Below, in pieces: positions 913 to 3,287 of a stretch of 64,000 nt of DNA. The position numbers and the translations under genes were made by a program. The notes below the pieces were generated by a model that saw only the letters and a program-made list of their open reading frames with translations, ran no database searches and was not told the DNA's origin. Positions within the stretch are counted from its first letter, which is position 1. Each line of letters starts with the position of its first letter. The stretch covers positions 91,636,001-91,700,000 of the forward strand of contig NC_058380.1 of assembly GCF_018350175.1 (NCBI RefSeq). The letters run 5' to 3'. The stretch is from Felis catus. Taxonomy: Eukaryota.

Positions 913-918
913 TTTATT
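913..918 (-). terminator. LCNL1: LCNL1 polyadenylation signal
   Basis: AATAAA on the minus strand, about 100 nt into a putative non-coding exon 7 (acceptor ttgtttgcag, exon starts at 1013). Confidence 0.7.
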
Positions 919-1283
919 GTGCGGGGGATGGGTGGCGGACAGAAACGGTGTGCTCCTGGGGGAAGGCCCCGTACAGCATGGCCCCCAATGGGCACTCCTG
1001 GGAGGACTCTTTCCTGCAAACAAGGGGGCAGATGTAGTGGGGTGAGCGCCGTCTTCTCGTCCCCTCCTGCCCTCCCTGGGCCCAGCCCCAGGGCCCCTCT
1101 GTCCCTGGCCACTGCTGTCTGCGGTCCCACCTTGATTCTATGGTACCCACCACCCTGCCACCTGCTCCCGGCAGGAGGGCCCCCACAGTTCAGCCTTCTG
1201 GCTAAGAGGGGTCTCCATGGGCCTCAGGGCACCGGGCGCTGCATGCTGTGGGGACGGGCGTCCAGGCCGGCCCGAGCACTCAC

Positions 1284-3229
1284 CTAGGAGAAGGCGCCAG
1301 CACACTGGTCTGTGGGAGAGAGTGGGGTCTGAGGAACCAGCCAGAGGCCCCTTCCCCAGGGGGGGAGGCCCCCAACTGCCCCCGAGGAGCCAAGCCTCCC
1401 TGCCTGCAATCCCCTTCGGAGAGGCCACTGGCCAGGGCACTGGCCCGCCCTCTTCTGGCCCAGATAGGTCTGGTGCTTGTCCCAGGGGGGAGTGGTGCTC
1501 CCAGTCTGAGTCTCCTGCAGCCCTGAGCTGGCTCGGGGACAGCACTCACCGGACTGGGGCAGCAGGGCGCCCTGGCTGGGGTTGAGGCCCACTTGGGGTG
1601 CCAGCTGCTGCATTTTCTGGGCACCTTCAGGAAACAGCTCCGGGGCGCGGGCTGAGGGCAGGGAGGGTTGGTGAGCAGAAGAGGGCAGGGTTGGGAGGAG
1701 GAGGGTGGTGGAAGGCGGGGCGGGGCGGGGTGGGGTGGGGTGGGGTGGGAGGCAAGGGGAGGAGGCACGGGGGTGGGGGGAGGGGTCCGGACCCCTCTAC
1801 CACAGACACGGGGGTCCCCAGGAGACCCAGGGACACAGCGGTCCCGCCTGCCATGGACCTGGAACTTGCTGGAACGTGTGCGTGGGCGGCAGTGCAGACG
1901 GACCTTGGGCACACGGCTCCCGGAGGAGCGGCCTGCGCCTGGTGACCAGTGGGGGGACGGGGGGTGCTGGGAGCCCCTCCCCCCAGGACGCCCACCGTAG
2001 AGCTGCAGCCAGACGCTCCTGACGCCTGCCTTCTGGGTCTCCACGTAGAGCACGGCGAAGTGCTTGTAGTCGGTGCTCACCACCCGGATGTCAGTCTGCG
2101 CCATGGCTGAGGGGGAAGGGCCCGCTGAGCTGCCTCGGCCCGGGGCCCGCCCCCTGCCTCTCTCAGGAGCCCCCCGCCCCTGCCCAGCCTCACCCGCGTC
2201 GCTGAACTGCCCGTCAGCAGCCCCCTTCTTGAAGGTCGTGAGCATCTCCTGGCACCCGCCGTCGGGCCTGGGGAGGAGGAACCACGGCGTCCCCAAGGCC
2301 ACCGCTTGGGGACTCTGACCACGTGGGGTGGGCCGGGGCCCAGGCCACCCCAGCACCCCTGTGACCCCTCCCAGCGCTGCTTAGAGGTGAGGCAGCCCTC
2401 TAGGGGACAGGGGGCAGGCGTGAAGTACTTGGGGGAGCCCTACAGCCAGGACACGTGGGGTCTCCCCTTCAGACACACACACGCCCCGGGGAACGATGCT
2501 CCTCCACGGCTGAGGCGTCTGCTGCGGCAGCCTGACCCCACCAGGGGCCTGGGACTAGCTCGCTAGTGTGCCAGGGACACCTGTGTTCTCAGTGGCTCAC
2601 ACTGGCCAGGTCTAAGGCCCAGTCCGAGGTGGGGTTTGTGGGGTCACTTACGTAGGGTACCCGAACTTGAGGGCCAGGTCACCGTTGTCCAAGGGGGTCA
2701 CCAAGACCACGGGCATCTTTGTGTCGTCCTTGGAGTTCAGGAAGTCCTGGTCGTCTGAGGCCACGCCGACCACGTACCAGGTGCCCTGGAACTGCAGGGA
2801 GGGTGCGGGGAGAGCTGCGGCCCTGCGTCCTTATCAACCCTCACCCAGGTGGGGGGCGGGCAGCTGCGACTCCTCCCGGTTCCAGGCTCTGGGGAGCCGT
2901 GGTGGCCACAGGCCACAGAGCAGGCCTGTTGTCCTCCCCAGCCCAGTCCGTGCCCAGCTGATGGGACAGGTGGAGGGGGCTGTCTCCCCTGTCCCCCTGA
3001 CTTGAGCTGAGTCGGGACTGGAGGATCCCCAGGGGCTCCCCTGGCCCTCCAGCCTCCCTGCGGGTCATGCACCCCCGGATGGAGAAGCAGAGCAGGTAAC
3101 TCGCGAGGAGGAGGGGCTGCCGGGGCCCACCTGGCTGGCATCGAAGTTGGCCTGGATGGGGACCTGGCCCTGGCCTAGGGACAGCCTGAGCAGGACAAAG
3201 ACGGAGCCGATGAGCAGTGCCTGTGGCAT
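1284..3229 (-). CDS. LCNL1: Lipocalin-like 1, full-length 183 aa with signal peptide (6 coding exons)
   Basis: Exons 3229-3131, 2791-2652, 2267-2194, 2106-1996, 1651-1550, 1309-1284; all GT-AG, 552 nt in frame. Protein [92 protein letters not shown]...TDYKHF...LQLYARAP...DQCAGAFS*. Has lipocalin SCR1 (GTWY), SCR2 (TDY) and SCR3 (YAR); lies immediately 3' of PTGDS as in human. Confidence 0.9.
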
Positions 3230-3280
3230 CCTGGAGGACGGTTCTCAGCAGGGGACCTGGGGTGGCTTCTCTTGTCCGGC

Positions 3281-3287
3281 ATTTATG
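3281..3287 (-). promoter_or_regulatory. LCNL1: TATA-like box (CATAAAT) of LCNL1
   Basis: CATAAAT about 52 nt upstream of the ATG; the same motif precedes PTGDS and LCN12. Confidence 0.6.

Follow-up and report, generated by a model that had tools for sequence, protein, structure and literature searches.

What is the lipocalin-like gene that lies beside PTGDS in the cat genome, does it still encode a secreted protein, and what became of its counterpart in humans? We analysed a window of 64,000 nucleotides from Felis catus (contig NC_058380.1, positions 91,636,001 to 91,700,000); all positions given below count from the first letter of this window. An initial annotation had read the gene, LCNL1, as an intact, secreted, non-catalytic lipocalin and as a PTGDS-like paralog that decayed or is mis-annotated in humans.

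Gene structure, transcripts and predicted protein

Cat LCNL1 comprises six coding exons on the minus strand, whose 552 nt form a single open frame of 183 amino acids. Exon 1 (3229-3131, 99 nt) agrees with the RefSeq entry XP_006939733.2 and encodes the predicted signal peptide (approximately residues 1-21) together with the mature N-terminus. Exon 2 (2791-2652, 140 nt) contributes the GTWY motif, the lid helix, strands A-C and Pro60, which faces Cys65 of PTGDS. Cys85 and strands D-E are located on exon 3 (2267-2194, 74 nt), the TDY motif and strands F-H on exon 4 (2106-1996, 111 nt, the same size as in cat LCN15). Exon 5 (1651-1550, 102 nt), the best conserved of all, comprises the end of the YAR motif, the main helix and the next strand; exon 6 (1309-1284, 26 nt) supplies Cys178 and the stop codon. 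All five coding introns are of the GT-AG type (339, 384, 87, 344 and 240 nt) and the coding region closes with TAG/gtgagt. A seventh exon (1013-900, minus strand) forms the 3'UTR and carries AATAAA at 918-913; its 3' end near 900 is approximate, the main contigs stopping at 899-938. A putative TATA-like box, CATAAAT (3287-3281, minus strand), lies 58 nt upstream of the ATG, and PTGDS has the same variant. The TATA-like box, exons, splice sites and polyadenylation signal are present as the initial annotation had described them.

The translation is identical in every letter to XP_006939733.2 (LCNL1 isoform X2), and RefSeq additionally contains an isoform X1 of 247 residues that reads through intron 4. 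The novelty of the full-length form had been overstated, since RefSeq already holds the 183-residue form for the cat and many other mammals.

LCNL1 is located approximately 1.1 kb downstream of the polyA signal of PTGDS, on the same strand. PTGDS, our comparison gene (coding span 4692..7624, minus strand), is intact, encodes 191 residues and retains the catalytic cysteine. An LCN12-like exon and an exon of C8G are located on the same side of LCNL1 as PTGDS; on the other side of LCNL1 an exon of PAXX is found about 4 kb past the left end of the window. Both the identity with named LCNL1 proteins and the place between PTGDS and PAXX identify the gene as an LCNL1 orthologue. Exon 2 as a DNA query against the cat genome gave one match, the window itself, and by this search LCNL1 appears to be single-copy.

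For the splice joints, four of 24 listed sequencing runs were compared with positions 820-3100, a stretch that ends short of exon 1. X2, X3 and X11 are contig sets from three studies and X24 consists of raw reads. The three contig sets were taken as RNA by guess only, and their source tissue is not stated; X1 and X4 are metatranscriptomes. In three of the four runs the contig joints fitted the modeled introns 2, 3, 4 and 5 and the 3'UTR intron exactly (five of five joints in X11, four of five in X3 and two of five in X2). The exon 2 donor joint and both joints of exon 3 were present in X3 and X11, the exon 4-5 joint in X11, and the exon 5-6 joint as well as the 270-nt joint of the 3'UTR intron in X2, X3 and X11. 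The depth of spliced contigs in X11 was 122-155, compared with 9-15 for contigs retaining introns 2, 5 and 6; one contig of X3 retains intron 4. X24 yielded no reads in the roughly 2% of it that was sampled, too small a share for a test. The cat locus carries an intact, spliced LCNL1, as had been claimed, and this gene is already annotated in many mammals.

A comparison with the Pfam Lipocalin family (PF00061) resulted in a score of 70.8 bits (gathering cut-off 23) and an E-value of 1.8e-19, so that the assignment as a lipocalin is not due to chance. Besides the GTWY, TDY and YAR motifs, the protein contains exactly two cysteines, Cys85 and Cys178, which are the conserved pair noted earlier and are predicted to form a single disulfide. 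Residues G36-W38, D117-Y118 and R143 are the same in all 31 orthologues of the alignment. An N-glycan sequon is absent from the whole 183-residue sequence. The hydropathy of exon 1 (9-residue window) peaks at 2.9 at residues 5-14; this hydrophobic core is followed by a small residue before Gln22, and the signal peptide is predicted to be cleaved after Gly21. The mature protein would then have 162 residues, a mass of 17.5 kDa and an acidic pI of 4.5 (4.5-4.9 in placental LCNL1).

With the 31-row alignment as input, AlphaFold2 gave a model with a pLDDT of 90.0 and a pTM of 0.82, comprising eight strands, a lid helix (residues 48-56) and a side or C-terminal helix (residues 149-158). Cat LCNL1 is accordingly modeled as a full eight-stranded lipocalin barrel with a C-terminal helix. 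The ESM Atlas returned generic lipocalin clusters only for LCNL1, and no structure.

A search with the cat protein yielded 102 matches among 178 candidates. Full-length LCNL1, complete with a signal peptide, the GxW motif and the two cysteines, is found in carnivores, pangolin, horse, rhino, ruminants, hippo and fruit bat, and also in shrew, lemur, several rodents, xenarthrans, elephant and marsupials. A profile search (best 150 of 591 matches) added a platypus protein, XP_039766619.1. The mature proteins are 75-86% identical to that of the cat in nine placentals, 60-63% in two marsupials and 49% in platypus; in exon 5, 28-33 of 34 residues are identical in all nine placentals compared. Human-mouse pairs of lipocalins are 39-86% identical, with 72% for PTGDS (PMC6381713, Table 4). 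LCNL1 belongs to the more conserved lipocalins, because 75-86% corresponds to the upper end of that range. An open frame kept at such identity across mammals points to purifying selection. The marsupial and platypus orthologues show that LCNL1 is ancestral to mammals, in line with the earlier suggestion, and the intact gene is the general mammalian state rather than a peculiarity of the cat genome.

Human LCNL1 and other possible losses

Human LCNL1 (NP_997393.3/Q6ZST4, P0158) consists of 164 residues and starts with MVGVVSDD at the equivalent of cat residue 40. It has neither a signal peptide nor the GxW motif and reads into intron 4 after LQLYG; these defects, which the initial annotation had named, hold for this entry. 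Over cat residues 40-142 the two proteins are 70% identical, but the main helix and the second cysteine are missing from the human one. The structure model of the human protein has a pLDDT of 59.6 and a pTM of 0.49; the 59 residues 106-164 fall below 50 and are predicted to be disordered. The annotated human LCNL1 is truncated and, judging by this model, not predicted to fold fully, and the database entry of 164 residues likely does not function as a lipocalin. Between cat and human, the intron-4 tails resemble each other only in the first ~12 residues. Orthologous intron DNA would give the same, and the resemblance does not point to a functional tail.

None of ten anthropoid models combines a signal peptide with W38, C85 and C178. 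In baboon, exon 1 is full and normal and the model ends at 109 residues after a frame change in exon 3. All four isoforms of the orangutan Pongo pygmaeus begin in exon 3 and retain intron 4, and three of them show the cysteine of exon 6. The gorilla model carries a low-quality flag. Gln108, invariant in 31 of 31 intact sequences, is replaced by leucine in all five anthropoid species groups that reach this site. We further counted changes at 46 core positions, which were defined by 26 rows, the counts being read only for rows outside those 26. There are six changes in human, including D82H at an invariant site, two each in chimpanzee and gorilla, five in dog and seven in tarsier.

Six whale models have 6-11 changes at the 46 core positions, among them C178W in Tursiops, and the signal peptide is missing from the four toothed-whale models. 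Mouse, rat and hamster are absent from the 102 matches of the protein search. Incomplete models were also observed for tarsier, aye-aye, sifaka, rabbit, treeshrew and colugo, and a broken annotation alone is for this reason weak evidence of loss. On the basis of the protein models, LCNL1 is most likely in decay in anthropoid primates. The pattern in these models fits a recent decay in hominids and an older one in Old World monkeys and whales.

For human alone, the gene could instead be intact but mis-annotated, with a full-length secreted form produced in the epididymis. Chimpanzee and gorilla, with only two core changes, have fewer than the dog. Exon 5 is open in the models of chimpanzee and orangutan and likewise in P0277, an unnamed open reading frame that shares its TEG residues with the named human protein, and the orangutan retains exon 6 with its cysteine. 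Epididymal expression of human LCNL1 is cited, second-hand, in PMC7833257, and the cat, too, has its intron-4 read-through isoform in RefSeq beside the intact one. However, a full-length hominid sequence occurs neither among the 102 matches nor among the ape cluster members listed, the four P. pygmaeus isoforms share the late start and the retained intron, and the human sequence has six core changes, one of them at an invariant site. We consider mis-annotation of an intact human gene rather unlikely.

A broader reading, which we put forward tentatively and at somewhat less than even odds, is that LCNL1 is an old, strongly conserved and abundant seminal lipocalin that was inactivated independently in anthropoids, whales and mouse-like rodents. 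In that case the human protein would represent a spurious frame of a decaying gene, and the human GWAS, eQTL and tumour signals would mostly reflect run-on transcription from PTGDS. Such losses would have gone unnoticed, because the human gene is annotated as coding and there is no mouse copy to serve as a reference. The best correlate of PTGDS in human tumours is LCNL1 RNA (PMC12484698), a correlation that would fit run-on transcription, and LCNL1 has been named as a lung-cancer eQTL gene (PMC10905670). If the human copy is decaying, its database protein should be withdrawn, and association studies of LCNL1 (e.g. PMC10905670) should turn to PTGDS or other neighbours. The largely open-access literature covered contained no study of the evolution, ligand or loss of LCNL1, although supplementary tables of gene-loss screens may list it. 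Since the gene and its 183-residue protein are already known (from RefSeq and from canid semen), a new lead comes only from the possible hidden losses.

Closest relatives

Searched by sequence among solved structures, cat LCNL1 is closest to human LCN15 (109 bits), followed by Q83/Ex-FABP (90 and 74 bits); PTGDS scores 45 bits at most. With the predicted structure as query, Foldseek placed human LCN15 at the top (r.m.s.d. 1.0, E 1.1e-19) and Q83/Ex-FABP at ranks 2-3. Superpositions with VIA-align resulted in a Z-score of 26.2 for human LCN15 (r.m.s.d. 1.1, 149 aligned), 24.1 for PTGDS (r.m.s.d. 1.8, 159 aligned) and 22.5 for Ex-FABP (r.m.s.d. 1.6).

For the phylogeny we used a midpoint-rooted tree of 66 hand-picked rows, in which rows tagged 'u', for lack of a source name, were assigned to groups by similarity. 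All 15 LCNL1 rows form one clade (support 100/97). This clade groups with three LCN5-like or long-branch rows and with mammalian LCN15, most of whose rows are labelled only by likeness to 2xst (99/95). The next to join are reptile and bird proteins named 'lipocalin-15' (99/95), and PTGDS is placed elsewhere. A 37-row tree with most long branches removed, again midpoint-rooted, gave the same grouping, with 97/94 for the LCN15/LCN5-like clade. In an AU test a forced clade of LCNL1 and PTGDS was rejected (log-likelihood 50.3 lower, p 9.9e-6). Sequence, fold, size of exon 4 and trees place LCNL1 closest to LCN15 and the epididymal lipocalins; the designation as a PTGDS-like paralog has to be given up.

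LCN15 (human PDB-entry 2xst; cat gene) has exons 2, 4 and 5 of 140, 111 and 102 nt, as has LCNL1, but is only about 35% identical to it. It differs by a third cysteine at the position of the invariant Asp47 of LCNL1. In the cat, the LCN15 exons measure 102/140/71/111/102 nt and are followed by an exon 6 that is longer than the 26 nt of LCNL1. We rejected the possibility that the gene in the window is cat LCN15 itself, as a separate, intact LCN15 is located at G000:C31 near 91.788 Mb, about 150 kb away.

PTGDS resembles LCNL1 in being the adjacent gene, in its equal intron phases, its 26-nt exon 6, its TAG/gtgagt end and its fold, and both proteins are found in the same canid fluids. The exon sizes of PTGDS (114/140/77/117/102/26 nt) agree for exons 2, 5 and 6, as the initial annotation had stressed. 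The sizes of 140 and 102 nt, however, also occur in cat LCN15 and were discarded as a sign of descent from PTGDS, and exon 4 (117 nt in PTGDS, 111 nt in LCNL1) fits LCN15. This leaves exon 6 as the only exon whose size LCNL1 has in common with PTGDS but not with cat LCN15. Many LCNL1 orthologues have a terminal glutamine where the cat has its stop, so the TAG/gt end is likely not an old trait shared by the two genes. Cat LCNL1 and PTGDS are identical at 49 of 181 aligned residues (27%). The segment LSMCISVV of PTGDS aligns with TKMPVVLV of LCNL1, which places Cys65 opposite Pro60. That pairing stands, but not the proposed replacement of cysteine by proline, since relatives within the LCN15/epididymal clade have serine or alanine at this position and not cysteine. 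Unlike PTGDS, LCNL1 has no Cys65, no free thiol and no N-glycan sequon, and it belongs to a different clade.

The LCNL1-like and LCN15-like proteins of platypus have consecutive accession numbers and are listed with contigs of equal length, which suggests that they may form a tandem pair. LCNL1 would most likely have originated as a tandem duplicate of an LCN15-like gene before the monotreme split and have remained beside PTGDS. Two published lipocalin inventories, the text of PMC6381713 and the supplements of PMC8420045, contain no match to 'LCNL'. The latter source describes a branch 'LCN15-1' composed of horse (ENSECAG00000042990) and elephant (ENSLAFG00000030069), with no human or mouse member in the branch as given there; the branch probably represents LCNL1 by a different name.

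Tissue, ligand and proposed role

The initial annotation had called the tissue of LCNL1 unknown, which was overstated, as canid studies report LCNL1 both from epididymal fluid and from semen (sperm and seminal plasma). In the seminal plasma of the red wolf LCNL1 holds rank 6 of the top 20 proteins and PTGDS rank 13 (PMC12572227). Dog cauda epididymal fluid contains LCNL1, with higher amounts at good motility (PMC10573609); this call is based on ~10-12% coverage of a 299-residue TrEMBL model, with no antibody check. In dog sperm fractions LCNL1 was identified by one unique peptide (PMC8944539), and it has been given as ~1% of dog sperm proteins (PMC12786130). All samples of female dog urine contained a lipocalin described as closely homologous to human LCNL1 and LCN15, which was 43% higher in oestrus (PMC10140845). 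From this homologue, the role of LCNL1 may not be limited to males.

At a probability of roughly 0.7, we regard cat LCNL1 as a conserved lipocalin of the LCN15/epididymal clade that is likely secreted into the fluid of the male tract and likely serves as a non-enzymatic carrier of a small lipophilic ligand. The isomerase chemistry of L-PGDS requires a free catalytic thiol. LCNL1 cannot use this chemistry because such a thiol is absent; with Pro60 at the critical position and no third cysteine, the earlier statement that the protein is not catalytic in this sense proved correct.

Based on the model and the canid data we propose the following course of events. LCNL1 would be secreted as an acidic carrier of 17.5 kDa into the luminal fluid, for which the data come from canids and not from the cat. 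There it may bind a fatty acid, a lysolipid, a retinoid or a steroid. The ligand could either be handed to maturing sperm or be stripped from them. The highly conserved surface of the exon 5 helix might dock on a partner, e.g. an uptake receptor. As one of the more conserved lipocalins and, in one canid, a major seminal protein, LCNL1 is a neglected candidate for work on sperm quality in carnivores and livestock.

LCNL1 might, like LCN15, mainly carry or present volatile or semiochemical ligands in urine, semen and mucosal secretions. LCN15 is found in olfactory mucus and boosts some receptor-odorant responses (review PMC12691349), and the oestrus-dependent protein in dog urine would suit such a role. 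That the gene looks eroded in anthropoids and whales would agree with reduced chemical signalling in these lineages. Pheromone carriers are usually fast-evolving and expanding. LCNL1, in contrast, evolves slowly and is apparently single-copy, mouse and rat are missing from the 102 matches, and the dog urinary protein is known only as a close homologue and is thus a putative LCNL1. A semiochemical function as the main role appears improbable to us.

An antimicrobial siderophore binder, i.e. a mammalian counterpart of avian Ex-FABP, is an even less probable assignment. Ex-FABP/Q83 (PDB-entries 3sao and 1jzu) has the same fold and lid helix at ~30% identity, and it follows directly after LCN15 in both the sequence and the Foldseek search. 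One beaver isoform of LCNL1 is labelled 'extracellular fatty acid-binding protein' by NCBI. The catechol-binding residues of Ex-FABP are K82, R101 and R112 (PMC6584246). In a sequence alignment they correspond to T109, T128 and Q139 of cat LCNL1, and these sites are T/T/Q in eight of nine placentals and A/T/Q in the dog. The absence of the triad argues against siderophore binding, and the retention of Tyr114 of Ex-FABP as Tyr141 leaves lipid binding possible. The acidic pI of placental LCNL1 also speaks against a siderophore binder. Orthology with Ex-FABP was rejected because of the missing triad and because Ex-FABP-like rows lie outside the LCNL1/LCN15 clade. Bird proteins named 'lipocalin-like 1' were likewise rejected as orthologues on the one case checked, XP_054249505.1, which clusters with Ex-FABP-like proteins.

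Finally, we regard as highly improbable the reading of LCNL1 as a PTGDS duplicate that became catalytically dead through the loss of Cys65 and today either binds prostaglandin-like ligands or acts as a competitor of PTGDS: the tandem position on the same strand, the common TATA variant, the 26-nt exon 6 with the TAG/gtgagt end and the second-best fold match are set against an AU test that already largely refutes this descent, exon sizes and a coding end of little weight, and 27% identity to cat PTGDS versus 36-42% to LCN15-type proteins.

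Intron 4 and variation in the LCNL1 locus

The open frame of LCNL1 (minus strand, window ~900–3287) that leads on from exon 4 (2106–1996) runs for 274 aa, through intron 4 (1652–1995) and beyond. Read-through into this intron occurs in the RefSeq cat isoform X1 as well as in many primate models, and the intron is retained in one contig of X3, a public-run contig set (putative RNA) aligned over window 820–3100. Retention of intron 4 seems to be a recurrent weak spot of the gene. For the LCNL1 exons within 820–3100, no single-base differences were listed in the run contigs; those observed, at positions 1032, 1152, 1377 and 1875, are all four intronic. 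Near the left end of the window, a segment at ~255–470 has a (CT)n tract followed by a tail rich in A and resembles a carnivore tRNA-derived SINE.

Gene order and possible linkage in mammals

The Heterocephalus glaber protein P0131 is a model combining an LCNL1-type start with a PAXX domain (PF15384). It is likely an annotation fusion of neighbouring genes, LCNL1 and PAXX, which is consistent with a conserved gene order. In platypus, the LCNL1-like P0183 (XP_039766619.1) and the LCN15-like P0187 (XP_039766620.1) have consecutive accessions, and contigs of equal size are listed for both and for an LCN5-like protein. These three genes possibly represent an ancestral linked cluster.

In our exon model, cat LCN15 (locus L007, G000:C31:91787830-91789990) is intact and encodes 186 aa, despite being termed human-specific in a review (PMC12691349).

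Putative multi-lipocalin proteins and bird labels

Among the best 150 of 591 profile-search matches, eleven proteins (P0191, P0208, P0213, P0218, P0227, P0229, P0232, P0234, P0243, P0251 and P0278; 1,276–5,687 aa, no source names) contain 8–33 lipocalin-like stretches each. Either they are genuine polyproteins built of tandem lipocalins, or gene prediction has merged the members of lipocalin clusters into single models.

Bird 'LCNL1' labels, for example in a pigeon crop-milk paper, may not denote mammalian LCNL1, since one protein that bears the name 'lipocalin-like 1', Indicator indicator P0313 (XP_054249505.1), falls among the Ex-FABP-like proteins.
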